A stretch of 64,000 nt of DNA, from contig CABYTX010000002.1 of assembly GCA_902522015.1 (NCBI GenBank), positions 716-64,715 on the forward strand, given 5' to 3'. Position 1 is the first letter of the stretch, and each line of letters begins with the position of its first letter. This document shows positions 48,758 through 64,000 of this stretch, piece after piece. The translations under genes and the position numbers were made by a program. This DNA comes from an uncultured Alphaproteobacteria bacterium. GTDB taxonomy: Bacteria; Pseudomonadota; Alphaproteobacteria; HIMB59; GCA-002718135. The notes beneath the pieces were generated by a model. That model made no database searches and was not told the DNA's origin. It was given only the letters and a program-made list of their open reading frames with translations.

Positions 48758-48806
48758 AGGGTAAATTTATAACATTAATTTTTTAATTGATACAAACAAA
48801 TTAAAA

Positions 48807-49667
48807 CTACTTGTAAGAATATCTAAATATAAATATTCCCGATGAAACGATGATGATTGCTCCTATTATTGTAAATATATCTGGGATTTCTTCATACACT
48901 AACAAGCCAAAAATTATTCCCCAAACAATTATAGTATAATTATAAGGCGCTAAAATACTTGCTGGTGTTATACTCAATGCTTTGATTTGTAAAAATAACC
49001 CAGTACAAAAAAAGATACCCAAGAAAATAAAAAAGATAAAAGAAAATGAATGTAAGGGTTGCCAAAAAAAAAGTGATAATACAAATGTAATGATAGCACC
49101 TATAAGACCATTGTAGAATAACATAGTTTCATTATCATCATACTTAGCATTTAATCTTGTTGCTATTTGAAATAGTGAATAGAAAAAAGCAGCACATAAT
49201 GGGATAATTAGATATGGATTAAATATAGTTAGTCCAGGTCGCATAATTAGAATAACTCCACAAAAACTTACACCAATCGCTAACCAAGTGGCTACATTTA
49301 TTTTTTCTTTTAAAATAAAATAAGAAAAAATTAAAACTAGAACAGGGGCTAAAGATCCTATTGTGTGAGCATCTGCCAGAGCCAAGTACCTAAAAGACAA
49401 TACAAAAAAACAAGATTCACATACAGATAAAATACATCTAGTTATTTGTATCTTGTAATTATTTGAAAGATAAAATTTTTTAACTTTATTTTTTTTTGCA
49501 ATAAAAAAAGAAAAAATAAAACAGAAAGTAAATTTTACAAATAATAATACAAAAACAGAGTGATATTGAACTGCTGTTTTTTGAATTGTATCTAAAATAC
49601 CAAAAGATAAATACGTTAAAAGAGTTAAAATAATTCCATAGGTATAGGGATTTGATTTCATGTTCAT
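48807..49667 (-). CDS. EamA/DMT-family transporter
   Basis: 286 aa, about 10 TM segments, with a duplicated EamA-like architecture. Confidence 0.75.
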   Translation of the reverse strand: MNMKSNPYTYGIILTLLTYLSFGILDTIQKTAVQYHSVFVLLFVKFTFCFIFSFFIAKKNKVKKFYLSNNYKIQITRCILSVCESCFFVLSFRYLALADAHTIGSLAPVLVLIFSYFILKEKINVATWLAIGVSFCGVILIMRPGLTIFNPYLIIPLCAAFFYSLFQIATRLNAKYDDNETMLFYNGLIGAIITFVLSLFFWQPLHSFSFIFFIFLGIFFCTGLFLQIKALSITPASILAPYNYTIIVWGIIFGLLVYEEIPDIFTIIGAIIIVSSGIFIFRYSYK

Positions 49668-50857: not shown

Positions 50858-50864
50858 AACTGGA

Positions 50865-51863
50865 TTAGATTAGACTCTTTATTTTTTCTATTAGCTCTGA
50901 ATTAATTTGTCTTGGGCCTTTATCTTTCCTATTTGTATGTCTTCGTTGTCCTGGTAAACGCACACCCTCTAAGGATGTCATTTGTTCAAAAAATTTCTCA
51001 GCATGTTCATTCCAATTTTTTCCTGCAATGAGCTCTGGAGATAAGGCCATAATAAATTCACCACCCCTTGCAGGACCTCCATCATTATTGTCTTCTTCTT
51101 TAGCTTCAAAACTAAATAAATCTCCTACTAGACCTGCAGCTAATAACTCAATCATCATTGCTATTGCAGAACCTTTGTAGTCACCAAATGTTAAAAGGAC
51201 TCCTCCATTTGCAATGTCAGATGGATTATCAGTTTTTTCTCCATCTTTATTTAAGCCTGTTCCAAATGGAACTTTATGGCCATCACGTGCTGCAACCTGA
51301 ACTTCCCCCATCGCCATTGTTGAAGTTGCCATATCGTAGACTACTGGTGTATTATTTTTTCTAGGCCAAGCAAATGATATGGGATTTGTTCCAAATAGTG
51401 GTTTTTTTGCACCAGCTGGAGCTACGCTTGGTTTATAAGCTGTACAAGCAATCCCAACTAAGTTGTTTTCAGCCAATGCTTCAGTTTCGTGCCATAAGGC
51501 TGCAAAGTGATGAGTATTTGATATAGTTAAAACACCAACTCCATTTTTATTTGTCGTTTTTATCAATTCAGGCAAACCAACTTTTATACCTACAGGAGCA
51601 AACCCATAATCACCTTCAACACGAATCGCATTTTGTGTAAGATAGGTATTTGAAGGTCGTGAAGCTCCATTTACTTTTTTACTTTTTAGCGAAGCTACAT
51701 AACCAGGAATTCGAAATAAACCATGAGAAACACTTCCATCTCTTTCAGCATGTGAAACTGTTGTCGCTACAGAATCAGCATTGAAATGATCGCATCCATT
51801 AGTTGATAAAGCTTTATATGCTAGATCATATATATTTTCTAATTCTAATGGCGTGGTATTCAT
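50865..51863 (-). CDS. Ldh2-family (malate/L-lactate/sulfolactate-type) NAD(P)H oxidoreductase
   Basis: 332 aa with HAERDGSVSHGLFR, TNPISFAWP and GDYKGSAIAMMIELLAG, which are typical of Ldh_2. Confidence 0.75.
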   Translation of the reverse strand: MNTTPLELENIYDLAYKALSTNGCDHFNADSVATTVSHAERDGSVSHGLFRIPGYVASLKSKKVNGASRPSNTYLTQNAIRVEGDYGFAPVGIKVGLPELIKTTNKNGVGVLTISNTHHFAALWHETEALAENNLVGIACTAYKPSVAPAGAKKPLFGTNPISFAWPRKNNTPVVYDMATSTMAMGEVQVAARDGHKVPFGTGLNKDGEKTDNPSDIANGGVLLTFGDYKGSAIAMMIELLAAGLVGDLFSFEAKEEDNNDGGPARGGEFIMALSPELIAGKNWNEHAEKFFEQMTSLEGVRLPGQRRHTNRKDKGPRQINSELIEKIKSLI

Positions 51864-51896
51864 TTACTTTTATTGAATAATTAATATTATTAATTC

Positions 51897-53267
51897 ATGG
51901 ATAGAGGATTATTGGACAATTTAAAAGATATTTTACAAGAAAGAATATCATTTTCAGAAAGTGTAAGAAATAATCATGCAAAAGGTGAAGATGCTTATGA
52001 TCCTGTTCTACCTAGAGCAGTTTTATTTCCAAACAATAATGAAGAACTTTCAAAGATACTTAAAATTTGTAATGAATTTAAAGTACCAGTAACTGCCTAT
52101 GGCACAGGCACATCATTAGAGGGTCATGTCGTTGGAAATGATGAAGGTTTCACAATTTCTATGGAAAATTTTAACAAAATTATATCTATTAATGAGTCAG
52201 ACTTTGATTGTCGAGTTCAAGCAAATGTGTCTAGAGAACAACTCAATGAAACTTTAAAAGATAAAGGAGTTTTCTTTCCAATTGATCCTGGTGCTAATGC
52301 TTCTCTGGGGGGTATGGCTGCTTGTTCTGCTTCAGGAACAATGGCAGTGAGATATGGTACAATGAGAACTACAGTCCTTGGTTTAACGGTTGTAATGGCC
52401 AATGGTGAAATTATAAATACAGGAACAAGATCTAAAAAAACATCTGCAGGATATAATCTAACCAATCTTTTTGTTGGATCAGAGGGAACATTAGGAATAA
52501 TAACTGAAGTGCATCTAAGATTGTCTCCAATTCCAGAGAGTATAATGAGTGCTGTTTGTCAATTCCCTGATCTAGACTCTGCAGTTTTAACAGCACAAGA
52601 AATAATTCAATATGGCGTCCCTATTGCAAGAGTAGAGTTATTAAATAAAGATCAAATGGATATAAGTATACGATACTCACAACTAGACAATTTAGACCGT
52701 CTACCCACACTTTTCTACGAGTTTCATGGTAGCGAGATTTCAAATAAAGAATCGATTGATGTAGTGGAAGAAATTTCTAAAAATAATAATGGCAGTGAAT
52801 TTAAATGGGCAACAAATACAGAAGAAAGAAACAAAATCTGGAAAGCAAGACATAATGTTTATTATTCTGTAAAAGCACAAGGTGATAATATTAGAGTGTA
52901 TGTTACTGATGTTTGTGTGCCTATTTCAAATATTGTAGAATGTATTAAATTTGCAGAAACAGAACTTCGTGTTACTGGATTAAAAGCACCAATGGTTGGT
53001 CATGTGGGTGATGGAAATTTTCATGTATCTATTATCTATGATCCTAGTAAAGAAAATGAATACAAATATATTAGAGAATTTAGTAATAAATTAATTGATA
53101 AAGCTTTAGAGATGGAAGGAACAATTACTGGTGAGCATGGTATTGGTCTTCAAAAAAAAGAGTATTTACTGAAACAACACCCCGATAATATTCCGTTAAT
53201 GAAATTAATTAAAAAAAGTTTCGATCCAAATAATATTTTAAATCCAGGTAAGGTTTTTGATTTATAA
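51897..53267 (+). CDS. FAD-linked oxidase (D-lactate dehydrogenase / GlcD-like)
   Basis: 456 aa with an FAD_binding_4-like N-terminus (VTAYGTGTSLEGH, GANASLGGM) and the C-terminal GTITGEHGIG...LNPGKV. Confidence 0.8.
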   Translation: MDRGLLDNLKDILQERISFSESVRNNHAKGEDAYDPVLPRAVLFPNNNEELSKILKICNEFKVPVTAYGTGTSLEGHVVGNDEGFTISMENFNKIISINESDFDCRVQANVSREQLNETLKDKGVFFPIDPGANASLGGMAACSASGTMAVRYGTMRTTVLGLTVVMANGEIINTGTRSKKTSAGYNLTNLFVGSEGTLGIITEVHLRLSPIPESIMSAVCQFPDLDSAVLTAQEIIQYGVPIARVELLNKDQMDISIRYSQLDNLDRLPTLFYEFHGSEISNKESIDVVEEISKNNNGSEFKWATNTEERNKIWKARHNVYYSVKAQGDNIRVYVTDVCVPISNIVECIKFAETELRVTGLKAPMVGHVGDGNFHVSIIYDPSKENEYKYIREFSNKLIDKALEMEGTITGEHGIGLQKKEYLLKQHPDNIPLMKLIKKSFDPNNILNPGKVFDL

Positions 53268-53274
53268 AAATTAA

Positions 53275-55008
53275 TTAATGACTATGCCTTTTTACTTCAG
53301 CACCTCTTTTACCAATAAGAAAATCTAAGTCTGCACCTTTGTCAGCTTGCATGACATGTTCTATATACATTTTTTGGTAACCGCCTGTGATTTCTGGAAC
53401 GACAGGTGAATAATTTTCTAGACGATTTTTTATTGTTTCGTCATCAACTTTTAAATTCATTGTACCACTAGTAACATCTACTTCTATTTCATCTCCATTT
53501 TGTACTGCTGCTAAAGGACCTTTAACTGCGGCTTCTGGAGCTGTATGCAGTATTACTGTGCCATATGCTGTTCCACTCATTCTAGCGTCAGATATTCTAA
53601 TCATATCTCTCACACCTTTCTTAAGAACTTTTTGTGGAAGTCTCATATTGCCAACTTCTGCCATACCAGGATAACCTTTTGGCCCACAGTTTTTTAAAAC
53701 TAATATTGAATTTTCATCAACTTCTAAATTAGGATCATCAATCTTTTCATGAAACTCTTCTACACTTTCAAAGACTACGGCTTTTCCCGTATGTTTCATT
53801 AATTCAGGCGATGCAGCTGATGGTTTAATAATTGCACCATTTGGAGCAATATTACCCCTAAGAATTTTAATTCCTCCATTTTTTGTTAATGGATTTTCAA
53901 ATTCTTTGATAACATCATTATTCCAACATTTAGCATTTATATTATTCTCAGCTATAGTTTTTCCATTAACAGTCATTTCATTTTCTTCTAATAGATTTTT
54001 TTCCATTAATCTTTTTATAACTACAGGAACACCACCAGCATAATAAAAATCTTCCATTAAGTATTTTCCAGAAGGTTGTAGATTTACTAATGTTGGAATA
54101 CCGTCTCCACATTTATTCCAATCTTCTAAATCTAGATCTATTTCCATTCGACCTGCGATTGCAGCTAGATGGATAACTGCATTTGTAGATCCCCCTATTG
54201 CTCCATTGACCTTGATTGCATTTTCAAACGATTTTTTTGTAACAATTTTTGACATAGTTATATCTTCCTTAACCATTTCAACAATTCTTTTTCCAGACAT
54301 ATGAGCTAAGGCATATCTTCTTGAGTCAACTGCAGGTATCGCAGCATTTCCAGGTAGTGACATCCCTAGTGCTTCTACCATTGATCCCATTGTTGATGCA
54401 GTACCCATTGTCATACAATTACCTTTTGATCTACTCATTGAAATTTCTGCATTAATAAAGTCTTCTTCTGTAATTACACCAGCGTTTAAATCTGCATCAA
54501 GTTTCCAAACACCAGTGCCAGAACCTATTGTTTCACCTTGATGATGTCCATTAAGCATTGGACCACCTGAAACACCTATTGTAGGAAGATCTACACTTGC
54601 AGCCCCCATCATTAATGAAGGTGTTGTTTTATCACACCCCATTAATAGTACGACTCCGTCTATAGGATTACCCCTTATTGCTTCTTCAACATCCATACTT
54701 GCTAAATTTCTAAACAACATAGCTGTAGGTCTTAAATTGGATTCACTTGCTGAAAAAACAGGAAATTCAAGAGGAAAACCGCCAGCTTCATAAACACCTT
54801 TTTTGACAGACTCTGCTATCTCTCTAAAATGACCATTACAAGGAGTTAATTCTGACCATGTATTACAAATACCAATTACAGGACGGCCATCAAACAAATG
54901 ATTTGGATGACCTTGATTTCTCATCCAACCTCTATGAATAAATGTATCTCTTCGATGTGATTTAGAATTATACCAATTAGAAGATCTAAATTTATTTTTT
55001 TTATTCAT
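53275..55008 (-). CDS. IlvD/Edd-family sugar-acid dehydratase (xylonate/arabinonate-dehydratase-like)
   Basis: 577 aa with GRPVIGICNTWSELTPCN, GCDKTTP, SGGPMLNGH and GNCMTMGTAS. The N-terminal region resembles pentonate dehydratases more than IlvD. Confidence 0.88.
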   Translation of the reverse strand: MNKKNKFRSSNWYNSKSHRRDTFIHRGWMRNQGHPNHLFDGRPVIGICNTWSELTPCNGHFREIAESVKKGVYEAGGFPLEFPVFSASESNLRPTAMLFRNLASMDVEEAIRGNPIDGVVLLMGCDKTTPSLMMGAASVDLPTIGVSGGPMLNGHHQGETIGSGTGVWKLDADLNAGVITEEDFINAEISMSRSKGNCMTMGTASTMGSMVEALGMSLPGNAAIPAVDSRRYALAHMSGKRIVEMVKEDITMSKIVTKKSFENAIKVNGAIGGSTNAVIHLAAIAGRMEIDLDLEDWNKCGDGIPTLVNLQPSGKYLMEDFYYAGGVPVVIKRLMEKNLLEENEMTVNGKTIAENNINAKCWNNDVIKEFENPLTKNGGIKILRGNIAPNGAIIKPSAASPELMKHTGKAVVFESVEEFHEKIDDPNLEVDENSILVLKNCGPKGYPGMAEVGNMRLPQKVLKKGVRDMIRISDARMSGTAYGTVILHTAPEAAVKGPLAAVQNGDEIEVDVTSGTMNLKVDDETIKNRLENYSPVVPEITGGYQKMYIEHVMQADKGADLDFLIGKRGAEVKRHSH

Positions 55009-55040: not shown

Positions 55041-55916
55041 TCAAATTTTAAATTTATTATCTTCAAGACCAGGTACATTAACATTTAATGCAAATAAACT
55101 ACCATCATGTTGATTTTTACCCGAATTTGTAGCACTTGTGATAAATAAAGTTTTTAGATCACTTCCACCAAATACACAATTTGTTACATTTTCAACAGGT
55201 AGCTCATAAATTTTATCTATTCTTCCTCTAGGATCAATTCTCACTACACATGATCCACCCCAACGACAATTCCAAATAAAACCATCACTATCAATAGTTG
55301 ATCCATCTGGAGCACCTCTATCAAAATCAAAGAAGTTTTTTTTGTCTGACAAACTACCATCATCTAGGTTAAAATTGTATTCTAGTAATGATCCCTCAGT
55401 TGTATCAGCAAAATAAAATTTTGTGTTATCTGGACTCCAAACAAATGTATTAGGTATACCAAGATTTGTTTCAACAATATTTACTTTATTATCAGATAGA
55501 CAATATAAACTCCCAGATTTAGCATTTAAAGATTTTGCACTTCCATCTAGATTAAAATTATTTTGCATCGTCCCAAACCAAAGCCTACCTTTAGCATCTG
55601 ATGCACCATCATTAGATCTATTTGTTAAAATATCATCTTCAACATTAATTATTCTTTCATATTTTTTAGATTGAAAGTTAAATTTATTTACTCCATTATT
55701 AGAGACTAAAGCAATTTCATTCTTTGAGATTATTGACGTTGCTGTTACAAAATCAGGTAAATCAAAAATTTCTAATCTTTCGTTATCTAAATTAATTCTG
55801 AATAAAACTGATTTTGGTTTAATATCTACCCAAAGTAAACTTTGATCAATTGAAGACCACGTTATACCTTCTCCTAAACTATTTTTTACATCTTTAAATA
55901 ACTCAACCTTACTCAT
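55041..55916 (-). CDS. SMP-30/gluconolactonase/LRE-family lactonase
   Basis: 291 aa with LGEGITWSSIDQSLLWVDI, SNDGASDAKGRLWFGTM, PDGSTIDSDGFIWN and LFITSA. Confidence 0.8.
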   Translation of the reverse strand: MSKVELFKDVKNSLGEGITWSSIDQSLLWVDIKPKSVLFRINLDNERLEIFDLPDFVTATSIISKNEIALVSNNGVNKFNFQSKKYERIINVEDDILTNRSNDGASDAKGRLWFGTMQNNFNLDGSAKSLNAKSGSLYCLSDNKVNIVETNLGIPNTFVWSPDNTKFYFADTTEGSLLEYNFNLDDGSLSDKKNFFDFDRGAPDGSTIDSDGFIWNCRWGGSCVVRIDPRGRIDKIYELPVENVTNCVFGGSDLKTLFITSATNSGKNQHDGSLFALNVNVPGLEDNKFKI

Positions 55917-55960: not shown

Positions 55961-56968
55961 TTAGAGGTAATGGGCTTTATCTTTGATACGAGCCATTACT
56001 TCTTTGGTTGCTTCTTCAGACCCATCATGGAACGTACCCATTAATTTATCTAAGAAACTAGTATTTCCACCTGAATAATTACATTCAAAATATCTATGAT
56101 GTATGTAATGCATATAATCACCTGTTGGAATTGAAACACCATTTTTGAAAGTCATTTTCTCATATCCTGTATGTCCAGGTGTAGGGGCTAAACCAGCATG
56201 AAATACATGATACATCGCAACAAGAGGATGTGAAGGGATTATCCAATGAACTAAAATTCCTGAAAAATAGAGTATATGCTCTATTGGATGCATAGACATA
56301 CCTGACCAAGCACCTGTGTTCGTATTACGGTGATGAACTTTATGAGCAATTTTATAAAGTGGTGCCCAGTGTAATAATCTATGAGTTAAATAAAAATGTG
56401 CGTCTCTTATAAATGGAACAAGAAAGAACATAAAACAACAATATATCGGATAAACCTCCCAGCTTACATATGGGATTATTTGATTTGCAAATGCCCAAAA
56501 TGTAATTACTTCATAAGCTGTCCATAATGGAATAGCACTACAAAAAGTATAGAATAGGTTGTCTTTAGTCTGATCATTAAATAAAAAAGTTGAGTTATTT
56601 TTTTCTAGAGGTCGTGGGTTATATTTAAATGAAGTTCCTTGAGTCTTCAGTCTTAAATGAAAGAAGCCTGTCCAAAGCAAAATAATAACTGCGTTTCTGA
56701 AAAATATGTAGGATATCCATCCTATTTCAAAAGTCTTCATTGTCTCTAAGGAAGGAGTCAAAAAAAGATATGTAGCAACTGTTATTGCTGCGAAAACAAA
56801 AGTCCATGGAAAAAAAATTCCAGGAAATTTAAAAAAATACTTTAAAAATTTTACCGGGTTAAAAAATATATCTTTAGGTGGGTTAATACTTATTGTACCA
56901 AATGGTTTCCAATGACCTCTTTTGTCTCTAGTACCAAAATCGCTATCATTTAGTTGATTCCTCATCAT
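55961..56968 (-). CDS. Fatty-acid-hydroxylase / sterol-desaturase-superfamily membrane di-iron protein
   Basis: 335 aa, multi-TM. His boxes are HFYLTHRLLH, HKVHH, HPIEH and HYIHH. Confidence 0.7.
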   Translation of the reverse strand: MMRNQLNDSDFGTRDKRGHWKPFGTISINPPKDIFFNPVKFLKYFFKFPGIFFPWTFVFAAITVATYLFLTPSLETMKTFEIGWISYIFFRNAVIILLWTGFFHLRLKTQGTSFKYNPRPLEKNNSTFLFNDQTKDNLFYTFCSAIPLWTAYEVITFWAFANQIIPYVSWEVYPIYCCFMFFLVPFIRDAHFYLTHRLLHWAPLYKIAHKVHHRNTNTGAWSGMSMHPIEHILYFSGILVHWIIPSHPLVAMYHVFHAGLAPTPGHTGYEKMTFKNGVSIPTGDYMHYIHHRYFECNYSGGNTSFLDKLMGTFHDGSEEATKEVMARIKDKAHYL

Positions 56969-57003
56969 GTATTTATAGTATATTTTGAATAAAAAAAAAG
57001 AGA

Positions 57004-58020
57004 CTAAATTGTCGTATCTGGAACCTTCACATCAATAAAATAATTTTTATCTTTAGATTGCTTAAATATTGCTGGAATTATTGATCTATAAGCAGAAATT
57101 ATTCCTTTATGAGGTTCTGGCATTTGATTTTTAACTATTTTGTGAAATTTTTTTAAATTATGGCATGGGATTTTTGGGAAAATGTGGTGCTCAATATGAT
57201 ATTCCATGTTTGAATATAAAAAACTAAAAAACGGATTCATGATTACTGTTCTTGTACTTTTTCTATGATCTTTAATATTATCAGCTAGTCCAGCATGTTG
57301 GGTCATGCCGCATATCATTAATATAGTATTACCGTAAAATGGAGGTAAAATTATCATTATTATTGGTAGCCATGATTGTAACAAAACTGAACATAAAATT
57401 ACGAGCAACCAAAAACTTAAATATAATCTTGAACTATTAATAATTTTTTTTATCTCCTTTTCAGGTACTGTAACTTTTACAACAGGAGTAATTATCCCAA
57501 ATGAATGTTTAATAATTTCAAAATGTGTAAAATGTCTTATTTTTTGAATATTAATTATTGGACCAAGAGGTAAAAAATTTAAAAGAAATCTTACAGGTTC
57601 TGTTGGTTTTGGACTATTATTTTCATAATCGTACACCTCTTCATGTGTAAATATAGTGTAAATATGGTGATGAAAATGACTCCACTTCCATCTAACTGCT
57701 TCAAAACCACCGAGTAAAGAAGTTATATGATAAAAAAATTTATTTAACGCTCTTGTTTTAAAATATGTTTCGTGATTTGTTTCATGTTGAATGCTTATGA
57801 TCTTACAATAGAAAATATTTCCATAAAGCAAAAGAGCAGGTATTGACCATAAAGTACCCCAACTTAGAATACATAGATATCCACTTAATATTAGAGCAAC
57901 AATAAATATGGATATATCTAATAAACCTTTTATATCCGATCTCTTAGAAAGTTCCTTTAAAGTTTTCTTATCTATTTTTGGTTTATACCAAGTTTTTAAA
58001 TCAACTTCGCCCGCAAACAT
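57004..58020 (-). CDS. Fatty-acid-desaturase-family membrane di-iron protein (paralogue B)
   Basis: 338 aa, four TM-like segments. His boxes are HETNH, HFHHH and HIEHH. A clear paralogue of the ORF at 60476-61462. Confidence 0.7.
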   Translation of the reverse strand: MFAGEVDLKTWYKPKIDKKTLKELSKRSDIKGLLDISIFIVALILSGYLCILSWGTLWSIPALLLYGNIFYCKIISIQHETNHETYFKTRALNKFFYHITSLLGGFEAVRWKWSHFHHHIYTIFTHEEVYDYENNSPKPTEPVRFLLNFLPLGPIINIQKIRHFTHFEIIKHSFGIITPVVKVTVPEKEIKKIINSSRLYLSFWLLVILCSVLLQSWLPIIMIILPPFYGNTILMICGMTQHAGLADNIKDHRKSTRTVIMNPFFSFLYSNMEYHIEHHIFPKIPCHNLKKFHKIVKNQMPEPHKGIISAYRSIIPAIFKQSKDKNYFIDVKVPDTTI

Positions 58021-58023
58021 TAA

Positions 58024-58851
58024 TCAAAATTTTTCTGAAAGCTTTAAAAATTTTTCAAATTCACCTTCATCAATGTTAACTGTGATTTTAGGATCATTAA
58101 ATTTTTTGTTTACCGTATCATCGTGAAACTCTTTGAATGCACTTACTCTTTCAGCTTGTAGTTTTGAAAATTCTTTTTTAAAATCTCTATAAATTCGAGC
58201 ATGTCTTGGAATTTTTCCTTGGGTATATCCGAGTACATCATTAGCAAATAAATATTGCCCATCACATCCAGAACCACTTCCCATTGAGAGAGTCATGATA
58301 TCAACTTTTTTTGTAATAACTTCTGCAACTTTTGGTGGAACTACTTCGAGTTCAACTCCAATAGCACCCGCTTCTTGTAACTCAAGAGTATGTTCTAATA
58401 TTCTTATGGCTTTATCTGCTGTTTTACCTTGTGCAACAAATCCTCCAATCCAAGTAGCATTTCCTGGAACTAATCCAACATGACTATTAATTGGAACATA
58501 CTCATCTCTTAATGCTCTAATCCATTTGTAACTCCAATTACCACCATAAATAACATCTGCACCAATGTCTAAATACTTGTATGATAGTTTCATTGCTTCG
58601 TATTCAGAAGCTACTCTTACTGCTCCTCCGGATTGCATAAAGCAGGTTGGTGCAGCCTCGCGAATTCGTTTGAGTTCATCAAAAGAATTGAAAATACCAA
58701 ATTGTGGAGCATCATGAGAGGTACAAATCATGTCAATGCCTGCCTCTTCAGCTGCTGCAGCTTCATCAGCATTATGCACAAACATAACACTTAGTTGTCT
58801 TTTACCTTTGCATTGCAAATAATCATAAACTGTAAGTTTTTTTCTGCTCAT
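58024..58851 (-). CDS. PanB-family (3-methyl-2-oxobutanoate hydroxymethyltransferase-like) enzyme, divergent
   Basis: 275 aa. Collinear with PanB motifs: GIDMICTSHD (compare VGDSLG), INSHVGLVPGNATWIGGFVAQGK (compare GHxGLTPQ..GG..QG), LQEAGAIGVELEVVP and SMGSGSGCDGQYLFANDVLG (compare IGIGAG..DGQVLV..DMLG). Confidence 0.75.
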   Translation of the reverse strand: MSRKKLTVYDYLQCKGKRQLSVMFVHNADEAAAAEEAGIDMICTSHDAPQFGIFNSFDELKRIREAAPTCFMQSGGAVRVASEYEAMKLSYKYLDIGADVIYGGNWSYKWIRALRDEYVPINSHVGLVPGNATWIGGFVAQGKTADKAIRILEHTLELQEAGAIGVELEVVPPKVAEVITKKVDIMTLSMGSGSGCDGQYLFANDVLGYTQGKIPRHARIYRDFKKEFSKLQAERVSAFKEFHDDTVNKKFNDPKITVNIDEGEFEKFLKLSEKF

Positions 58852-58870
58852 AAAATCTCCAAAAAAATAG

Positions 58871-59188
58871 TTAATCTATCTTAATGAAAATTTTGTCATT
58901 ATCAACTTTAACTGGATATGTTTGTAAATCCTCACACGCTGGTGGGCTTAAAGCTTCTCCGGATTTAATATTAAAAATTCCCTGGTGCATTGGACATTCA
59001 ATTTCATCATCCATAACCAAACCATCTTCAAGATGTACCGCCTCGTGTGTACAAATTCCATCAGTAGCATAAAAACCATCTGTTAGCTTATACACACAAA
59101 AAGTTTTATCTTGATGATCAAATCTGATGAGATCCTCTTCTTCAATACTATCTGTCGACCCTACTTCAATCCAATTTTCTTCAGACAT
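58871..59188 (-). CDS. Rieske-type [2Fe-2S] ferredoxin
   Basis: 105 aa with the CTH...CPMH ligand pattern (C-x-H-x17-C-x2-H). The size is typical of BphF/TodB-like soluble ferredoxins. Confidence 0.85.
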   Translation of the reverse strand: MSEENWIEVGSTDSIEEEDLIRFDHQDKTFCVYKLTDGFYATDGICTHEAVHLEDGLVMDDEIECPMHQGIFNIKSGEALSPPACEDLQTYPVKVDNDKIFIKID

Positions 59189-59240
59189 AGATTGTATATA
59201 ATAGCTATTTTATGAAAATAAATACAAAATAATTAAATTG

Positions 59241-60470
59241 TTATTTTTGTATAAGTTTATTTAATTTAAGATTTTGATCTGTGAGAATTTGTTTATCTAC
59301 AATGTTATCTTTCTCAGTTAATTTAGAAGTTATTCTAATGTCACGGCCTACTTTTCCTATGATTCCAACACCGCATGCTCCTCTTATTTTATTATTTTTT
59401 AGGAAAAAATAAATAACACCATTATTAATATCATTACCTCTTTCGATGATTTCATCATACTCATCACAAATACCAGTCAGTTGAAGATTCAAATTAAATT
59501 GATCAGACCACATCCAAGGAATTGAAGTGTATTCTGTTTTTACTCCAGCAATGTTTTTTCCAGCACATATTCCATGATTTTGTGCATGTTGATAAGACTC
59601 GAGTCGCATATTTCTTTCATAGAATGGATGATAAAAATTAGATACGTCACCTGCTGCATAAACATCTTTAATAGAAGTTTCACAAAATTGATTAGTTACA
59701 ATACCATTATCAAGCCTTAAATTTGTATTTTCAAATAACTTTACAGTCGGGGTTGAGCCTATACCTGCAATTATAAAATCTGTTTCTATTAAAGAATTAT
59801 CATTTAATAAAATTTCATAATGGCCATTTATTTTAGTTATTTTTTCTATCTGTTTATTTAATATTATTTCATTTCCATGTTCTATATGAGTGTTTTGAAC
59901 TAAATCAGCAATTTGTTTGGGTATAATTCTTCCCATAAGTTGATTACCAATTTCAATAACAATTACTTTCTTTTGAAGCTGAGATAAAGATGAGGCAATT
60001 TCTAAGCCAATGAAACCACCACCAATAATTGTTATTTTATTTTTATTTGAAACTATTTCTTTAATTTTTTTGGCTTCTTCTAAATTTCTTAGATAATAAA
60101 TATCATTCTTTAAATTATTATCTAAAGTAAGTTTTTTATTTTCAGAACCTGTTGAAATAAGCAAACTATCATAAGAGTAAACATTGTCATTTTTTGCAAA
60201 AAGTTTTTTATTTTCAAAATCAACTTTATTGATTGATATATTTTCAAATTCTATATTTTCATTTTTTAGTACGTCGCTAGAATAAAAATAAAGATCTTCT
60301 TCTTTTTTTTTATCTAGCAAAAAATCTTTAGATAAAGGAGGTCTTTCGTATGGTAATAAATTTTCTTCACCTAAAATTTTAATATTTGATTTTGAATCAT
60401 TTTGTCTGATCTCTCTAGCAGCATAGACTCCAGCTTGACCACCACCTAAAATTATAATGTTATTTTTCAC
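59241..60470 (-). CDS. FAD-dependent NAD(P)H:ferredoxin reductase (pyridine nucleotide-disulfide oxidoreductase family)
   Basis: 409 aa with IIILGGGQAG (FAD), ITIIGGGFIGLE (NAD), YAAGDV and a reductase C-terminal domain. Resembles BphG/TodA/putidaredoxin-reductase types. Confidence 0.85.
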   Translation of the reverse strand: MKNNIIILGGGQAGVYAAREIRQNDSKSNIKILGEENLLPYERPPLSKDFLLDKKKEEDLYFYSSDVLKNENIEFENISINKVDFENKKLFAKNDNVYSYDSLLISTGSENKKLTLDNNLKNDIYYLRNLEEAKKIKEIVSNKNKITIIGGGFIGLEIASSLSQLQKKVIVIEIGNQLMGRIIPKQIADLVQNTHIEHGNEIILNKQIEKITKINGHYEILLNDNSLIETDFIIAGIGSTPTVKLFENTNLRLDNGIVTNQFCETSIKDVYAAGDVSNFYHPFYERNMRLESYQHAQNHGICAGKNIAGVKTEYTSIPWMWSDQFNLNLQLTGICDEYDEIIERGNDINNGVIYFFLKNNKIRGACGVGIIGKVGRDIRITSKLTEKDNIVDKQILTDQNLKLNKLIQK

Positions 60471-60475
60471 TCAGT

Positions 60476-61462
60476 CTAAGCGTTGCTTGGAACAGATAAT
60501 GGAATTTGATAGTCAGGATTTTTTGCTTGTTTTATGAGTGCTGGGATAATTTCTTTATAAGCTCCAAGAAGACCCTTTCTAGCAGGTGGTAATTGATCTT
60601 TAATCATAGCATGGAGCTTAGGTAAATTATGTGAGGGAACTTGAGGGAACATATGGTGCTCAACATGATATTCCATATGCCAATATAAAAAACTTAAAAC
60701 TGGATTTAAATATACTGTTCTAGTTGTATACCTATGGTCTCTTTTATCTTCTCTAAGTCCTGCGTGTTGAGTAAGACCCATAAGCATAACAAGGGTCTTT
60801 CCATAAAAATTAGGCAATAAAACATAAAGAACTGGAAGCCAACTTTGAAAGTAAACTGAAGAAGCTATACTAATTATCCAAATAGAAAGATGACTCCACG
60901 CAGATAATCTACATTTCCATCTTTCATTATTTGGAATACAAACTTTCATTACATCAGTAGTTACACCAAAAGCATGTTTTATAGTTTCCCATTGAAGAGA
61001 ATTTTTAAAGAAAATAAAACCAGAGAATGGAATGTAATGAGAGAAAAACACAATCAAGTCAGTTGGTTTTTTTACATGTATTTCAAAATCTACAGGATCA
61101 TTAAATTGAGTATAAGTATGATGATGATAGTGCGAATATCTCCATCTGATAGGTTCAAAATTATCCATGAAACTAGCAATATAATAAAAGAAATCATTCC
61201 AGAATTTAGATTTAAAAGCAGTTCTGTGACCAGTTTCATGCCATATAGCATCGCTGCATCCCCAAATATTTCCGTATATTATAAAAAATAATAATGACCA
61301 CCAAGTGCCCCAAGTGACATACGCAAGATATCCAAAGAGAAACAGAGATGAAAAATAAATAATCATATGCTTAAAACCCTGCCAATCAGATTTCTTGCAT
61401 AACTGCTTGAATTCTTTTTTATCTATATTTGCTCGATACCATTTACCTAAATCAACATCCAT
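60476..61462 (-). CDS. Fatty-acid-desaturase-family membrane di-iron protein (paralogue A)
   Basis: 328 aa. His boxes are HETGH, HYHHH and HVEHH. Shared blocks with paralogue B include WY..IDKK, GLTQHAGL, DHR..TRTV and MEYH.EHH.FP. Confidence 0.7.
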   Translation of the reverse strand: MDVDLGKWYRANIDKKEFKQLCKKSDWQGFKHMIIYFSSLFLFGYLAYVTWGTWWSLLFFIIYGNIWGCSDAIWHETGHRTAFKSKFWNDFFYYIASFMDNFEPIRWRYSHYHHHTYTQFNDPVDFEIHVKKPTDLIVFFSHYIPFSGFIFFKNSLQWETIKHAFGVTTDVMKVCIPNNERWKCRLSAWSHLSIWIISIASSVYFQSWLPVLYVLLPNFYGKTLVMLMGLTQHAGLREDKRDHRYTTRTVYLNPVLSFLYWHMEYHVEHHMFPQVPSHNLPKLHAMIKDQLPPARKGLLGAYKEIIPALIKQAKNPDYQIPLSVPSNA

Positions 61463-61652
61463 AATGAAAAAATAGCACTTTTTGATAATCTTATAAATAT
61501 AAAAATTGCTTTAAATTGGTAAATAAGTGCGACTATTTTATCTATCAAAAGAAAGAGGAATTTAATTTGTAATAAGATCTTTAATACTTTAATTTAATTG
61601 TATTATTGATTTATTTACTTATAAATTAATGCATAAATTATTTGGAGGAATT

Positions 61653-62633
61653 ATGAAAAAAATCTTTGCTGTCATTGCTTTATTTTTTGCTTTTGCATCT
61701 ACTTCAGCAGTAGCAAAAAATGATTACAGCTGTGATAAGAAATTTATATTTTTCCCAGGTGGTCCTGAAGGTGGCCCATTTGGAACTATCGTTTACAATG
61801 GTGCAGTAGCTGCTGCTGAACACACTGGTTGTGAAGTAGATTACTACTGGTCACAGTGGAACTCAGAAATCATGATTAAACAATTTAAAGAAGCTGTTGC
61901 TTTACAGCCTGATGGAATTGCAATCTATGGTTTTCCAGGAGACGCTGCTATGAGACCTATCATTCAAGAAGCTAGAGAAATGGGTATAGTAATTACTACT
62001 ATGAATACACCTCTTCCTGATCTTGAAGCAGAATATAAAACTGAAGGATTTGGTTATGCAGGTGCAGATCTATTCGATGCTGGATTTAATCTAGGTAAAA
62101 AAGCTGTTGAAGTTTGTGGTCTACAAGCTGGAGATAAAGCTTTTATCTGGGGTCTTGCAAGTATGCCAAACAGAGGAGAAAGAACTAAAGGTGCAATTGC
62201 TGGTGTTGAAGCAGCAGGTGTTGAAGTGGTTTATCAAGAAATTCCTGATAATGTAAACTCAGATGCATCTCAAGGAACTCCTATGTACGTTGCTACTTAT
62301 AGTGCAAATCCTGATATCAAAATGGCTATTACAGATCATGGTGGATTAACTGCAAGTTTACCAACATATATGAAGGCTGCAGGTCATGGTACTGAAGAAG
62401 TATGTGGTGCTGGATTTGATTTATCAGCTCCAATTGTTGACGGAATTAATTCTGGATACATTGACGTTGTAATTGATCAACAACCATTTATCCAAGGATA
62501 TATGCCAATTGTTCAGTTATTCCTAAGTACAAAATATGGAATGGCTGGATTAGCAATGGATACTGGTGCTGCGTTTGTTACAGCTGATAACGTTGATGCT
62601 GTTGCTCCATTAGCAGCAGTACAAATCAGATAA
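61653..62633 (+). CDS. Sugar ABC transporter substrate-binding protein (CUT2 / RbsB-like fold)
   Basis: Signal peptide MKKIFAVIALFFAFASTSAVA with a type-I sugar-binding fold pattern. GGAGGAA RBS at 61644-61650. Visibly higher GC and biased codons suggest high expression. I prefer the ATG at 61653 over the track start at 61629. Confidence 0.85.
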   Translation: MKKIFAVIALFFAFASTSAVAKNDYSCDKKFIFFPGGPEGGPFGTIVYNGAVAAAEHTGCEVDYYWSQWNSEIMIKQFKEAVALQPDGIAIYGFPGDAAMRPIIQEAREMGIVITTMNTPLPDLEAEYKTEGFGYAGADLFDAGFNLGKKAVEVCGLQAGDKAFIWGLASMPNRGERTKGAIAGVEAAGVEVVYQEIPDNVNSDASQGTPMYVATYSANPDIKMAITDHGGLTASLPTYMKAAGHGTEEVCGAGFDLSAPIVDGINSGYIDVVIDQQPFIQGYMPIVQLFLSTKYGMAGLAMDTGAAFVTADNVDAVAPLAAVQIR

Positions 62634-62679: not shown

Positions 62680-63447
62680 ATGGTTGAAGAACTCTTAAAA
62701 TTACAAAATATTTACAAAAACTTTGGAAACGTAAAAGTTTTAAAAGATGTGAATATCAAAATAAACAAAGGTGAAGTAGTAGCTTTAATCGGTGATAACG
62801 GAGCTGGAAAATCTACACTTATTAAAGTTATAACTGGAGTTCATAGTCCAAACTCGGGAAAAGTTTTTTTTAAAGAAAAAGAAGTACAAATAAAATCAGT
62901 TGCTCAATCAAGAAAAATGGGGATTGAAGCAGTGTATCAAGAAAGAGCATTATGTGATCAGCAAGAATTATACAGAAATATCTTTGCAGGAAGAGAAATT
63001 ACAAATTCATTTGGTTTTTTGGATATAAAAAAACAAAGAAAAGAAGCAGAAAAAATTTTACGCGACTATATAGGCTTTACTTCAAAAGCTATAACGGTTG
63101 ACTCTCAAGTAATGGGACTGTCTGGTGGTGAAAAACAAGGCGTAGCTTTCGGTAGATCATTGTATTTTAATTCTGATTTAATCGTATTAGATGAACCAAC
63201 AATGGGATTATCGATACAAGAAACAGAAAAAGTTCTTAATTTTGTAAAAGGTTTAAAGAATGAAAACAAATCTGCAATATTTATCGATCATAATATTATA
63301 CACGTATATGGAGCTGCAGATAGATTTATTATTTTAGATAGAGGTGAGGTTGTTGGGGAATTTAATAAAGAAGATATTTCAAGAGAAGAACTTGTTCAAA
63401 AAATGATTCAACTTCATGAATCAGGAAAAATAAAAGTGGAAGATTAA
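62680..63447 (+). CDS. Sugar ABC transporter ATP-binding protein (single-domain, FrcA-like CUT2)
   Basis: 255 aa with Walker A GDNGAGKST, signature LSGGEKQG and Walker B LIVLDEPT. Confidence 0.88.
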   Translation: MVEELLKLQNIYKNFGNVKVLKDVNIKINKGEVVALIGDNGAGKSTLIKVITGVHSPNSGKVFFKEKEVQIKSVAQSRKMGIEAVYQERALCDQQELYRNIFAGREITNSFGFLDIKKQRKEAEKILRDYIGFTSKAITVDSQVMGLSGGEKQGVAFGRSLYFNSDLIVLDEPTMGLSIQETEKVLNFVKGLKNENKSAIFIDHNIIHVYGAADRFIILDRGEVVGEFNKEDISREELVQKMIQLHESGKIKVED

Positions 63448-64000
63448 ATGAATAATTTATTAAATAGTTATTTTGTAAAAACTCACAAACTTGAAATTAG
63501 TATTACTATTATTGCTGTAGTACTATTCCTAATTTATTTTCTTGGCGCACCACATGTATTTACAAGATTTCCTATTTATAGAGCTTTTATGCAATCAATG
63601 CCTTTTTTTGGAATTATTGCTATATCAGCAACATTTGTTGTTACACTTGGTGAAATTGATTTATCATTTCCATCTATAGTTGGAATTACATCTCTCATAT
63701 TTGGAATTATAATGACATCGACTGATGGCAACTTTTTTATAGCATTTATTTTGGCAACTTCACTTGGAATGTTTGCTGGATTAGTAAATGGATTACTTGT
63801 TACTAAAATTGGTATACCTTCAATAGTTGCCACTATAGGTACATTATTTTTCTGGCGTGGATTAGTTAATGTAATTTCTCAAGGTAGCGGTATTGCAATC
63901 GTCGATGTAGCAGATGGAACATGGCATCATATGATATTTGTTGAAAAATTATTTGGAAAAATTCCAATGCAATTTATTTGGTTCATTGTATTAACTGGAT
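63448..64000 (+). CDS. Sugar ABC transporter permease (RbsC/AraH family), 5' part; runs off the right edge
   Basis: Not in the ORF track because it is open at the window edge. My translation from the ATG at 63448, which abuts the ATPase stop, has no stop to 64000. It reads MNNLLNSYFVKTHKLEISITIIAVV...TLGEIDLSFPSIVGI...GLVNGLLVTKIGIPSIVATIGTLFFWRG, typical of CUT2 permeases. Confidence 0.8.
   Translation, partial: MNNLLNSYFVKTHKLEISITIIAVVLFLIYFLGAPHVFTRFPIYRAFMQSMPFFGIIAISATFVVTLGEIDLSFPSIVGITSLIFGIIMTSTDGNFFIAFILATSLGMFAGLVNGLLVTKIGIPSIVATIGTLFFWRGLVNVISQGSGIAIVDVADGTWHHMIFVEKLFGKIPMQFIWFIVLTG

Follow-up and report, generated by a model that had tools for sequence, protein, structure and literature searches.

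We analysed a 64-kb stretch of DNA (the window) from a SAR11-like bacterium, a marine and abundant host. Six open reading frames on the minus strand, described in an earlier note on this DNA, were all confirmed at their coordinates by ORF listing, and the intergenic gaps (5, 52, 19, 3 and 35 nt, from ORF coordinates), the Pfam domains and the His-box and Rieske motifs were likewise borne out. The genes are co-directional and tightly spaced, as had been claimed, but the cluster does not end at 55961. The array instead runs through eight genes: two more lie beyond that point on the same strand, after spacers of 44 and 32 nt, and encode an SMP-30 lactonase and then an IlvD/EDD-family dehydratase. 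No terminator-like site was found on this strand, and a promoter scan of the locus gave hits at chance level. From the spacing of the genes, we infer that all eight form one operon. The same array, with proteins 78–100% identical, recurs in a large number of independent single-cell genomes and metagenomic contigs, and the arrangement is thus beyond chance.

Two of the genes encode MocD-like membrane di-iron (His-box) oxygenases that are 45% identical to one another, paralogue A (60476..61462, minus strand, 328 aa; Pfam FA_desaturase, 112 bits) and paralogue B (57004..58020, minus strand, 338 aa; FA_desaturase, 118 bits). A motif search found every His box, HETGH/HYHHH/HVEHH in paralogue A and HETNH/HFHHH/HIEHH in paralogue B. 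When paralogue A was aligned with MocD and marine homologues, H75-E-x2-H79, H111-x2-H114-H115 and H266-x2-H269-H270 were invariant. Over the full length, identity to the MocD encoded by a bona fide moc locus, R. leguminosarum pRLa11 (L009, our reference), was 39% for paralogue A and 35% for paralogue B (E 2e-74), and paralogue A was 42–44% identical to the Sinorhizobium pSymB copies. Paralogue B forms a separate clade, and in the loci of relatives its gene always lies directly after a PanB-like gene. The third oxygenase is a membrane di-iron enzyme of the FA_hydroxylase family (55961..56968, minus strand, 335 aa; Pfam FA_hydroxylase, 72 bits, residues 182–312) with the His motifs HFYLTH, HKVHH, HPIEH and HYIHH. 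Its gene travels with the module in relatives, is preceded in several of them by a second PanB-like gene of its own (L012, L016, L017, L097 and others), and has MocD-like neighbours both in Bauldia (L072) and on a contig of non-marine origin (L159).

Could these three proteins be ordinary membrane-lipid desaturases or hydroxylases, clustered with sugar genes only incidentally? Their Pfam families, FA_desaturase and FA_hydroxylase, would agree with this, as would weak NCBIfam matches to DesA and DesB. However, the DesA and DesB scores were 21–38 bits against cutoffs of 500, and no model among GntB, DesB, DesA and CrtR exceeded 43 bits (cutoffs 380–500), these His-box families being far more distant from the locus oxygenases than MocD, to which full-length identity is 35–44%. 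Adjacency to sugar-transporter, LacI, inositol, sugar-acid and PanB-like genes also persists across phyla. We regard a role in membrane lipids as highly improbable, and the case that the earlier note made against simple lipid desaturation gains support from these neighbours: sugar transporters, LacI regulators, and inositol and sugar-acid genes.

The AF2 model of paralogue A is all-helical (pLDDT 88.7), and the solved enzyme nearest to it in a Foldseek search was AlkB (AlkB-AlkG, TM 0.41). This match, and the likening of MocDEF to XylMA in the literature (PMC13434037), are what an AlkB/XylM-type hydrocarbon or aromatic-methyl monooxygenase would predict, 'hydrocarbon oxygenase' having been the original annotation idea for MocD. 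Such an activity is nevertheless very hard to reconcile with the locus, which encodes neither rubredoxin nor an alk- or xyl-type alcohol or aldehyde dehydrogenase pair, and is set among a hydrophilic sugar-type ABC importer and sugar-acid enzymes. Sequence similarity of the oxygenase to solved structures, AlkB included, was undetectable.

Between the oxygenase genes lie those of two electron carriers. One is a MocF-like FAD/NAD(P)H ferredoxin reductase with a glutathione-reductase fold and a Reductase_C domain (59241..60470, minus strand, 409 aa, GTG start; Pfam Pyr_redox_2, 203 bits), 32% identical to the reference MocF. The other is a MocE-like Rieske [2Fe-2S] ferredoxin (58871..59188, minus strand, 105 aa; Pfam Rieske, 60 bits) that carries CTH...CPMH in the motif search and is 58% identical to the reference MocE; it scored 134.7 bits on NCBIfam TIGR02377, 'MocE family', 1.5 bits short of the cutoff of 136.15. 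The earlier note saw no Rieske oxygenase in the cluster. This was correct, and a search of all ORFs of at least 60 aa found no second CxH...CxxH Rieske motif anywhere in the 64-kb window, the 105-aa ferredoxin being the only one; the window thus holds no competing client for the Rieske carriers. The pair might still supply electrons to a Rieske ring-hydroxylating oxygenase whose genes lie elsewhere in the genome, as the window covers one contig of a single-cell genome and the best equivalog-level matches besides MocE were HcaD (300 bits, cutoff 450) and AndAa (278 bits, cutoff 650) for the reductase, and AndAb/HcaC for the ferredoxin. All of these scores were below cutoff, however, the remaining one being 85 against 150. 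Adjacency of the FADS-like, Rieske and reductase genes in at least five phyla, the single Rieske motif in 64 kb, and the different ferredoxin and reductase found in the same position beside the Pelagibacter oxygenase (below) also count against a distant partner, to which we attach very little probability.

The earlier note could not assign this pairing to a described system. One does exist, and has its own NCBI model (TIGR02377): in rhizopine catabolism a FADS-like membrane protein (MocD), a Rieske ferredoxin (MocE) and a ferredoxin reductase (MocF) make up a 'ferredoxin oxygenase complex' (Bahar et al. 1998, as cited by PMC10107442, PMC13434037 and PMC5789663). MocDEF is reported there to O-demethylate 3-O-methyl-scyllo-inosamine, an assignment made from genetics (PMC10107442, PMC13434037). 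A root exudate consisting mainly of pinitol, an O-methyl inositol, induced mocDEF homologues (PMC5789663), and mocDEF-like clusters outside rhizopine loci had already been noted in rhizobia and Pseudomonas syringae (PMC13434037). Our reference locus has the published gene order of mocC, mocBA, mocR and mocDEF units; among NCBIfam models, its regulator exceeded the cutoff for 'rhizopine MocR' (751 bits against 650), and its ferredoxin reached 178 bits for 'MocE family'. We know of no MocD family member that has been reconstituted in vitro.

Conserved synteny, which the earlier note had proposed as a check for all six genes, holds for the FADS-like, Rieske and reductase genes across at least five phyla: the module, with or without a PanB-like gene, was found in Rhizobiales, Streptomyces, Verrucomicrobiia, Chloroflexia, Ca. 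Angelobacter and many metagenome contigs. On homology, the operon is a relative of MocDEF and does not represent a novel type of enzyme system. No homologues of MocR, MocA, MocC, LacI or the TIM-barrel protein were found in the window, which is therefore neither a rhizopine nor an inositol locus. Compared with rhizobial MocDEF, the locus here has grown to three membrane iron oxygenases and is linked to genes for sugar uptake and sugar acids.

In canonical Pelagibacter the oxygenase is retained, with carriers that differ from the Rieske and MocF-like proteins of the window. In 18 Pelagibacteraceae loci an oxygenase of 51–53% identity is followed by a non-orthologous Fer2-type ferredoxin, and then by a TrxR-like reductase in all 17 loci that extend far enough. 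This copy adjoins proteorhodopsin, with neither sugar genes nor a PanB-like gene beside it. Non-orthologous replacement of the carriers beside the same oxygenase family is evidence that the neighbouring carriers work for the oxygenase, and makes a small 2Fe-2S carrier and a flavin reductase a constant requirement of the family. Together with the MocD/E/F homology, the cross-phylum synteny and the lack of a Rieske oxygenase in the window, it supports the earlier suggestion that the Rieske pair feeds the His-box enzymes.

The remaining gene of the six encodes a PanB-like (beta/alpha)8 protein (58024..58851, minus strand, 275 aa; Pfam Pantoate_transf, 130 bits), which is not a canonical ketopantoate hydroxymethyltransferase. 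Its Pfam match covers profile positions 91–256 only, and it scored 102–117 bits on NCBIfam PanB models (cutoffs 207–272). H136 and E181 of E. coli PanB are kept, and D45, S46, D84, K112 and E114 are not. We take the lost positions to be Mg2+ and substrate (2-oxo-acid) ligands of PanB; with these metal-site residues gone, the chemistry of the protein is not readable from PanB. The gene had been treated as an unrelated insert, a view that did not hold up. The protein is 40–44% identical to that encoded after MocF in rhizobial clusters, the bona fide moc locus included, and a His-box oxygenase gene (MocD-like or FA_hydroxylase) lay within 2.6 kb of the PanB-like gene in 23 of 28 well-flanked metagenome loci, the pairing holding even where no ferredoxin was nearby. 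The PanB-like protein is thus a conserved fourth partner, and of all partners the one linked most consistently to these oxygenases. Its link to tetrahydrofolate is thin: in the reference moc locus MocF and the PanB-like gene are followed by PurU (331 bits, cutoff 286), but PurU was adjacent in only 2 of ~170 loci and FolD in none of them, and purU is absent from the 64-kb window.

The sugar setting noted previously was confirmed on both sides of the oxygenases. Downstream on the minus strand are the SMP-30/gluconolactonase-family lactonase (55041..55916; Pfam SGL, 238 bits), which follows the module at 45–59% identity in diverged relatives (L018, L069, L097, L113, L130, L150), and the IlvD/EDD-family sugar-acid dehydratase (53275..55008; NCBIfam PRK06131, 916 bits, cutoff 539), also kept downstream in relatives. 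The latter scored 837 bits on the L-arabinonate dehydratase model (cutoff 882) and 441 on the ilvD equivalog TIGR00110, below its cutoff of 618, and is therefore not the housekeeping IlvD. Divergently, on the plus strand, lies a CUT2-type ABC transporter. Its periplasmic sugar-binding protein (61629..62633; Pfam Peripla_BP_4, 107 bits) probably starts at 61653, where GGAGGA precedes an ATG; it matched the NCBIfam rhizopine-binding model weakly (83 bits, cutoff 420), and its PDB relatives are monosaccharide-binding proteins. The binding-protein gene is kept beside the module in relatives, with the ATPase ORF (62680..63447, plus strand) in all close ones. The permease (63449..64000, plus strand; Pfam BPD_transp_2) runs off the window end and was mapped from L010:7037-8014, on a contig 100% identical to the window; an SDR dehydrogenase lies just past the transporter. 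Genes for polyol and sugar dehydrogenases lie at 44–49 kb of the window, together with one for an FGGY kinase.

Elsewhere, most members of the oxygenase family have sugar ABC transporters or LacI regulators as neighbours, and the Marivivens module directly adjoins iolG, iolC and iolD. In a 96%-identical relative (L014), the genes that follow the module encode a lactonase, a glucose-1-dehydrogenase-subfamily SDR (229 bits against a cutoff of 215), a galactonate dehydratase (332 against 311), a DHDPS-family enzyme and the IlvD-like dehydratase. GFO/IDH/MocA dehydrogenases recur near the module in marine relatives.

At 35–44% identity to MocD, the substrate and even the reaction type (hydroxylation or demethylation) need not be conserved. 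An unlikely alternative is C–H hydroxylation of a soluble substrate without demethylation, for example at the methyl of a 6-deoxy sugar or at a C-methyl branch on a cyclitol or branched sugar, with the PanB-like protein removing the new hydroxymethyl by a PanB-type retro-aldol or acting on the carbon skeleton. PanB chemistry is a reversible hydroxymethyl transfer onto the carbon beside a keto group, which fits a retro-aldol role, and the GFO/IDH/MocA dehydrogenases could make the keto group needed. His-box enzymes are generic C–H hydroxylases, with AlkB the nearest solved fold here, and PanB-like genes pair one-to-one with oxygenases (PanBl-FADS_B, PanBl2-FAH). On the other hand, a PanB-like gene is also present in the moc locus, yet rhizopine has only an O-methyl group, and the loss of the Mg2+/2-oxo-acid positions speaks against PanB-type enolate chemistry. 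O-demethylation is also the only reaction assigned within the MocD family (PMC13434037).

The reading we favour, with somewhat better than even confidence in the mechanism as a whole, is a MocDEF-type three-component monooxygenase system with three terminal oxygenases. Electrons would pass from NAD(P)H to the FAD reductase, then to the soluble Rieske [2Fe-2S] ferredoxin, and singly to the di-iron centres of the three integral-membrane enzymes, the two MocD-like paralogues and the FA_hydroxylase-type protein. Their substrates would be small soluble carbohydrates, probably O-methylated and entering by the divergent CUT2 importer, rather than membrane lipids. If they act as MocD does, the oxygenases would each hydroxylate an O-methyl group, and collapse of the hemiacetal would yield a free sugar hydroxyl and a C1 unit. 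The three may divide the work by methyl position or by methyl sugar, and the demethylated aldose could proceed by lactone to aldonate through the SMP-30 lactonase and IlvD-family dehydratase of the operon. Given its kinship with MocDEF and its sugar-uptake and sugar-acid genes, the operon probably serves to demethylate sugars that the cell has imported. In this scheme the PanB-like protein is a dedicated oxygenase partner that, as our best guess and the weakest step of the proposal, possibly traps the hydroxymethyl or formaldehyde unit on tetrahydrofolate, where the C1 unit would be oxidised for energy and not freed as formaldehyde.

The six minus-strand open reading frames (ORFs) that an earlier note had read from the sequence as one gene group were recovered at the same positions, and Pfam confirmed the domains it had named. 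They encode the FADS-like paralogue A (60476-61462; FA_desaturase), a ferredoxin reductase (59241-60470; Pyr_redox_2 and Reductase_C), a Rieske ferredoxin (58871-59188; Rieske), a PanB-like protein (58024-58851; Pantoate_transf), the FADS-like paralogue B (57004-58020; FA_desaturase) and a third oxygenase (55961-56968; FA_hydroxylase), with recomputed gaps of 5, 52, 19, 3 and 35 nt. The quoted His boxes and the CTH...CPMH motif were all found in the operon proteins. Paralogues A and B are 45% identical, and repeated HxxHH boxes occur in the window only in the three His-box oxygenases. The six genes stand as described, but the unit is longer by two minus-strand genes: one for an SMP-30 lactonase at 55041-55916, after a gap of 44 nt, and one for an IlvD/EDD-family dehydratase at 53275-55008, after a further 32 nt. 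Against NCBIfam models, the dehydratase failed the ilvD equivalog cutoff (441 bits, cutoff 618) and fell just short of that for L-arabinonate dehydratase (837 bits, cutoff 882). A scan of 52.5-62 kb, weak in DNA of 30% GC, found no terminator-like site inside the unit, and promoter-like sites there were at chance level (53 seen, 53.5 expected); the scan is compatible, as weak evidence, with a single transcript across the unit. The stretch between the polyol genes and the operon (47273-53267) encodes an FGGY kinase, an EamA transporter, a protein of beta-lactamase fold, a dehydrogenase of the Ldh_2 family and, convergently, a GlcD-like FAD oxidase, whose gene ends 7 nt from the dehydratase gene. 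Elsewhere in the window, a 1746-aa ORF (14814-20054, minus strand) occupies the most GC-rich stretch (0.36), which also has the most negative GC skew.

A CUT2-type sugar ABC transporter runs divergently from the operon, with an SDR gene just past it. Its sugar-binding protein (SBP) probably starts at ATG 61653, which has GGAGGA in front of it, rather than at 61629, and matched only generic monosaccharide-binding proteins in the PDB (33-55 bits). The divergent intergenic region (61463-61628) held AT-rich imperfect palindromes only and no convincing operator. Rfam gave no matches in the whole window, so there is no riboswitch hint of the ligand.

Conservation of gene order, which the earlier note had proposed as a check, was borne out in other single-cell genomes (SAGs) and in metagenome contigs. 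The window itself matches, at 100% identity, a contig of the SAG AG-899-L06, which is labelled 'uncultured Alphaproteobacteria'. The full array, from the transporter through paralogue A, reductase, Rieske ferredoxin, PanB-like gene, paralogue B, FA_hydroxylase gene and lactonase to the dehydratase, recurs at 95-100% identity in at least 8 other SAG loci. More distant SAGs have it at 78-84% identity, as do many contigs from marine metagenomes; one of these is labelled Ca. Pelagibacter. Among the relatives, the 82%-identical cluster carries the label Ca. Pelagibacter and more distant clusters the label HIMB59. Because of this recurrence, and because 2184 sequences fall into the 90%-identity cluster of paralogue A, we regard the arrangement as real, conserved and environmentally common.

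The decisive lead to a described system was an NCBIfam match of the ferredoxin. It scored 134.7 bits on TIGR02377, 'MocE family 2Fe-2S type ferredoxin', 1.5 below the cutoff of 136.15, and the next-best model, AndAb, reached 85 bits. MocE belongs to MocDEF, the FADS-like oxygenase (MocD), Rieske ferredoxin (MocE) and ferredoxin reductase (MocF) of rhizopine catabolism. A tblastn search of paralogue A against plasmids returned 293 records, most of them from Rhizobium and Sinorhizobium, with identities of 40-44% across 98% of the length. As reference we used L009, a bona fide moc locus on pRLa11 of R. leguminosarum, whose regulator scored 751 bits on the 'rhizopine catabolism regulator MocR' model (cutoff 650) and whose MocE scored 178 bits on the MocE family model. 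Its gene order (iolE-like, MocA-type dehydrogenase, SBP, MocR, FADS, Rieske, reductase) corresponds to the published mocC, mocBA, mocR and mocDEF units. Both SBPs of L009 (7219-8148 and 17427-18440) score below the NCBIfam 'rhizopine SBP' cutoff, at best 138 against 420 bits. Paralogues A and B both qualify as MocD homologues, aligning over their full length with L009 MocD at 39% and 35% identity (E 2e-74 for B); the ferredoxin is 58% identical to MocE and the reductase 32% identical to MocF. The three His boxes are invariant across the aligned rhizobial and marine sequences. The reductase matches MocF further in combining Pyr_redox_2 with Reductase_C in the same operon, between gaps of 5 and 52 nt.

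Most of the comparisons that could be run agree, those of oxygenase and reductase clearly, while the ferredoxin is a borderline case, and on sequence grounds the window system would work like MocDEF. The pairing that the earlier note could not assign thus belongs to a described system. Since the combination of a His-box enzyme with a Rieske ferredoxin and a reductase has been known genetically as MocDEF since 1998 (as cited in passages of PMC10107442 and PMC13434037), categorical novelty falls away. What is new is that two MocD paralogues and an FA_hydroxylase-type oxygenase share one ferredoxin/reductase pair, that the module is fused to an aldose/aldonate catabolic operon, and that it is present in abundant streamlined marine bacteria. 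By comparison with MocDEF and its relatives, O-demethylation is a candidate function of the window oxygenases. Our literature search found no published characterisation of these marine genes or of the PanB-like partner, including in moc clusters, and no bacterial pinitol or methyl-inositol demethylase beyond MocDEF.

The window and the moc locus have in common an FADS-like His-box oxygenase, a Rieske ferredoxin of about 105 aa and a GR-type reductase of about 410 aa in one operon, a PanB-like gene right beside this module and a sugar-type ABC transporter nearby. They differ in gene order (D-F-E in the window, D-E-F in the moc locus), in the second MocD paralogue and the third, FA_hydroxylase-type oxygenase of the window, and in their hosts, that of the window being a streamlined marine alphaproteobacterium of about 30% GC. 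MocR, MocA, MocC and inositol genes are missing from the window, which has the lactonase and the sugar-acid dehydratase instead. With L009 MocR, MocA, MocC and MocB as queries, tblastn gave no match in the window at E<=1e-6, which rules out a rhizopine catabolic locus; the window SBP scored 83 bits on the rhizopine SBP model (cutoff 420). Closer in this respect are the 'mocDEF-like' clusters linked to LacI/FixV on rhizobial chromids and the cluster of woody-host Pseudomonas syringae, which like the window carry a mocDEF module outside a rhizopine locus. The rhizobial clusters share the PanB-like gene with the window. Unlike the window, these clusters have a LacI regulator (LacI/FixV-type in rhizobia), an Msi119-type TIM barrel and a MocB-like SBP 59-81% identical to that of the moc locus, which point to inositol derivatives.

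The proposal of the earlier note that the Rieske pair feeds the His-box enzymes gained support from three comparative lines, which suggest that electrons would pass this way. The first is adjacency: FADS, Rieske and reductase genes lie side by side in Rhizobiales, Streptomyces ureilyticus, Ca. Angelobacter, one verrucomicrobial and one Chloroflexia MAG, as well as on many contigs from soil and the sea. The second concerns Rieske ring-hydroxylating dioxygenases, whose carriers (HcaCD, AndAaAb, BphFG type) belong to the same broad families as the window ferredoxin and reductase. The window lacks alpha and beta oxygenase subunits, and its carriers score under every equivalog cutoff. As the earlier note had held, no Rieske oxygenase was found: among window ORFs of at least 60 aa there is a single CxH...CxxH motif, that of the 105-aa ferredoxin, and we rejected a ring-hydroxylating system for the window. 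The third line, carrier replacement, is the most telling. In 18 Pelagibacteraceae loci an FADS-like protein 51-53% identical to paralogue A is followed by a Fer2-type [2Fe-2S] ferredoxin, a TrxR-like flavoprotein reductase and a GST, with proteorhodopsin in front (Ca. Pelagibacter ubique HTCC8051, L043:9155-13027, and 17 others, including L024, L027-L033, L036-L040, L046, L048 and L057); one of the 18 contigs stops before the reductase. Here the oxygenase is kept and both carriers are swapped for non-orthologous ones, as one would expect if this oxygenase family cannot do without a ferredoxin and a reductase. The Pelagibacteraceae set lies directly downstream of proteorhodopsin and has neither PanB-like gene nor sugar transporter. 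Given this position, one may ask whether that oxygenase acts on a membrane substrate, be it related to retinal or carotenoids or of another kind.

Alkane and xylene monooxygenases (AlkB-AlkG-AlkT and XylMA) resemble the window system in combining a membrane His-box di-iron hydroxylase, a small iron-sulfur carrier and an NADH-flavoprotein reductase. They differ in carrier, which is rubredoxin (AlkG) or a fused ferredoxin-reductase (XylA), and in their hydrophobic substrates. An AlkB/rubredoxin alkane hydroxylase was rejected, as the cluster has no rubredoxin gene, there was no PDB sequence match and the TM score to the AlkB-AlkG complex was 0.41. The AF2 model of paralogue A, built on a 34-sequence alignment, is an all-helical membrane protein (pLDDT 88.7, pTM 0.88). 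Its closest Foldseek match was the FADS-like chain of the Chlamydomonas Orf2971/Ycf2-FtsHi complex (8xks_K / 8xqw_M; TM 0.63, 12-13% identity), followed by AlkB-AlkG (8F6T), the nearest solved enzyme. Orf2971/Ycf2-FtsHi is a chloroplast import motor, and its chain is closer to the MocD-like fold than AlkB is. The predicted fold thus confirms the fold class and gives no clue to the substrate. Sequence searches of the PDB with paralogue A and the FA_hydroxylase protein gave no matches, and the MocD family is therefore without an experimental structure. Membership in DesA, DesB, CrtR or GntB was rejected, best scores being 21-43 bits against NCBIfam cutoffs of 380-500, and no other characterised family of His-box enzymes that has an NCBIfam model exceeded 43 bits; for DesA and DesB this upholds the doubt of the earlier note about an acyl-lipid desaturase.

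The PanB-like gene might be taken for an unrelated insert, but it is a recurrent partner of the oxygenases. In the LacI-linked clusters of rhizobia and in the bona fide moc locus it comes after MocF, and in the latter it is followed by the formyl-THF deformylase gene purU. It also pairs with MocD-like genes at loci that have no ferredoxin nearby. In 28 metagenome loci the PanB-like gene is flanked by at least 1.5 kb on either side; a His-box oxygenase lies within 2.6 kb in 23 of them, and 19 include a Rieske ferredoxin. Of the five that lack the oxygenase, one (L156) has a PhyH dioxygenase directly upstream. Relatives have a further PanB-like paralogue, with 41-46% identity to the first, between paralogue B and the FA_hydroxylase gene, directly before the latter (L012, L016, L017, L095, L097-L102, L109-L114, L117 and L120). 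With this second copy PanB-like/oxygenase pairs result; the window has lost it or never had it. A 'membrane protein' encoded after the PanB-like gene in R. johnstonii was considered as an FA_hydroxylase homologue and is not homologous.

Several results exclude ketopantoate hydroxymethyltransferase (PanB) itself. The window protein failed both NCBIfam cutoffs (TIGR00222, 102.5 bits against 207.55; PRK00311, 117.4 against 272), and Pfam Pantoate_transf matched it at profile positions 91-256 only, leaving the N-terminal third unmatched. Aligned with E. coli PanB, all six PanB-like proteins have D45 replaced by H or P, D84 by G, K112 by Y and E114 by G or A; S46 is substituted as well and a deletion follows the D45 region, while H136 and E181 are kept, as is the C-terminal GxGxxxDxQ region. 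We take D45, D84, K112 and E114 to be the Mg2+ and 2-oxo-acid ligands of the E. coli enzyme and E181 to be catalytic. PanB and the PanB-like proteins share a fold family, and the genomic partners of the latter are oxygenases rather than pantothenate genes.

PanB uses 5,10-methylene-THF as cosubstrate. Because of this, and because purU follows the PanB-like gene in the moc locus, we propose that the PanB-like protein may take the C1 unit of a hydroxylated methyl group onto tetrahydrofolate (THF). PurU was adjacent in only two of about 170 fetched loci (L009 and L082) and FolD in none, and so we put the C1 trap forward as a conjecture. The window has neither PurU nor FolD; the single match in that search was a PurN-like ORF (28505-29074). 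According to excerpts of PMC3160333, SAR11 oxidises methyl groups by a THF-linked route, and strain HTCC1062 is slow on free formaldehyde, which is attributed to a missing formaldehyde-activating enzyme. Capture of the C1 unit on THF would fit such a route.

In a neighbour-joining tree the terrestrial MocD sequences form one clade and the marine oxygenases a large radiation, within which paralogues A and B form separate clades among many others, most of them beside sugar transporters. A very distant FADS-like type, 27-29% identical to A, fills the first operon slot in some relatives (L069:6465-7427, L105, L123, L138, L144 and L019:15756-16760), which keep the reductase, Rieske ferredoxin, PanB-like gene and paralogue B. 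This looks like a cassette-like exchange of the first oxygenase, and such modular swapping fits diversified substrate or position specificity. In other marine relatives the FADS/PanB-like pair occurs with a glyoxalase-family (VOC) protein, an XylA2_C-domain protein, GFO/IDH/MocA dehydrogenases and PhyH dioxygenases (L003:10596-13245, L121, L122, L140, L142, L066 and L060-L064). A xylA2 gene also adjoins mocDEF in woody-host Pseudomonas syringae, as described in part of PMC5132102.

Gene context points to carbohydrates as the substrate class, since nearly all MocD-like family members have sugar-type ABC transporters, LacI regulators or sugar/cyclitol enzymes as neighbours. The rhizobial LacI/FixV context has previously been read as catabolism of inositol derivatives, and in Marivivens the module abuts iolG, iolC and iolD. 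The mocDEF homologues of R. mesoamericanum are induced by a root exudate with pinitol as major component, according to passages of PMC5789663. The window lineage has no inositol-type partners and carries the lactonase and sugar-acid dehydratase in the operon instead. In L014, a 96%-identical relative, the genes after the module encode a lactonase, an SDR that passes the cutoff of the glucose-1-dehydrogenase subfamily, an enolase-superfamily enzyme that passes the one for galactonate dehydratase, a member of the DHDPS family and the IlvD-like dehydratase, a set that amounts to a non-phosphorylative route of aldose oxidation. Given the missing inositol partners, the lactonase and dehydratase, and the L014 gene set, we infer that an O-methylated aldose, with methyl-galactose as one candidate, is favoured over a cyclitol for the window lineage. 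L014 ties the module to galactose-type oxidative catabolism. A functional analogue of the system proposed here is the 6-O-methyl-D-galactose demethylase of marine Bacteroidetes, a P450 with ferredoxin and ferredoxin reductase. With these three components it removes the O-methyl group of a marine methoxy sugar oxidatively and releases formaldehyde (excerpts of PMC6292453, PMC9400963 and PMC10033563). Its catalyst is unrelated, a haem P450 as opposed to a membrane di-iron enzyme, and the formaldehyde is dealt with by separate detoxification pathways.

For these genes, the annotations 'fatty acid desaturase' and '3-methyl-2-oxobutanoate hydroxymethyltransferase / pantothenate biosynthesis' are probably wrong. 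A wider and speculative reading, to which we give only a modest chance, is that MocD-like and FA_hydroxylase-type di-iron enzymes, each with a PanB-derived partner, form an unrecognised family of carbohydrate O-demethylases that radiated in SAR11-type and AEGEAN-169-type bacterioplankton, the PanB-like protein having lost ketopantoate chemistry and acting as a THF-dependent hydroxymethyl or formaldehyde acceptor. [quoted passage not shown] 2013, cited in a passage of PMC6292453). If the wider reading is true, their methyl groups would enter THF-linked energy metabolism in cells that are poor at using free formaldehyde. The oxygenase family itself is large and has diversified strongly among the most abundant marine heterotrophs. 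To our knowledge, the Bacteroidetes P450 is the sole marine sugar demethylase characterised so far; given a di-iron alternative in SAR11-like cells, the question of who strips methyl groups from DOM sugars would become directly testable. Even the classical moc locus has the PanB-like protein as a regular, so far unremarked, fourth component, and if this protein couples demethylation to tetrahydrofolate, the PanB fold would gain a new activity. The locus offers a concrete and testable route to a question of marine carbon cycling and to a possible new function of that fold.
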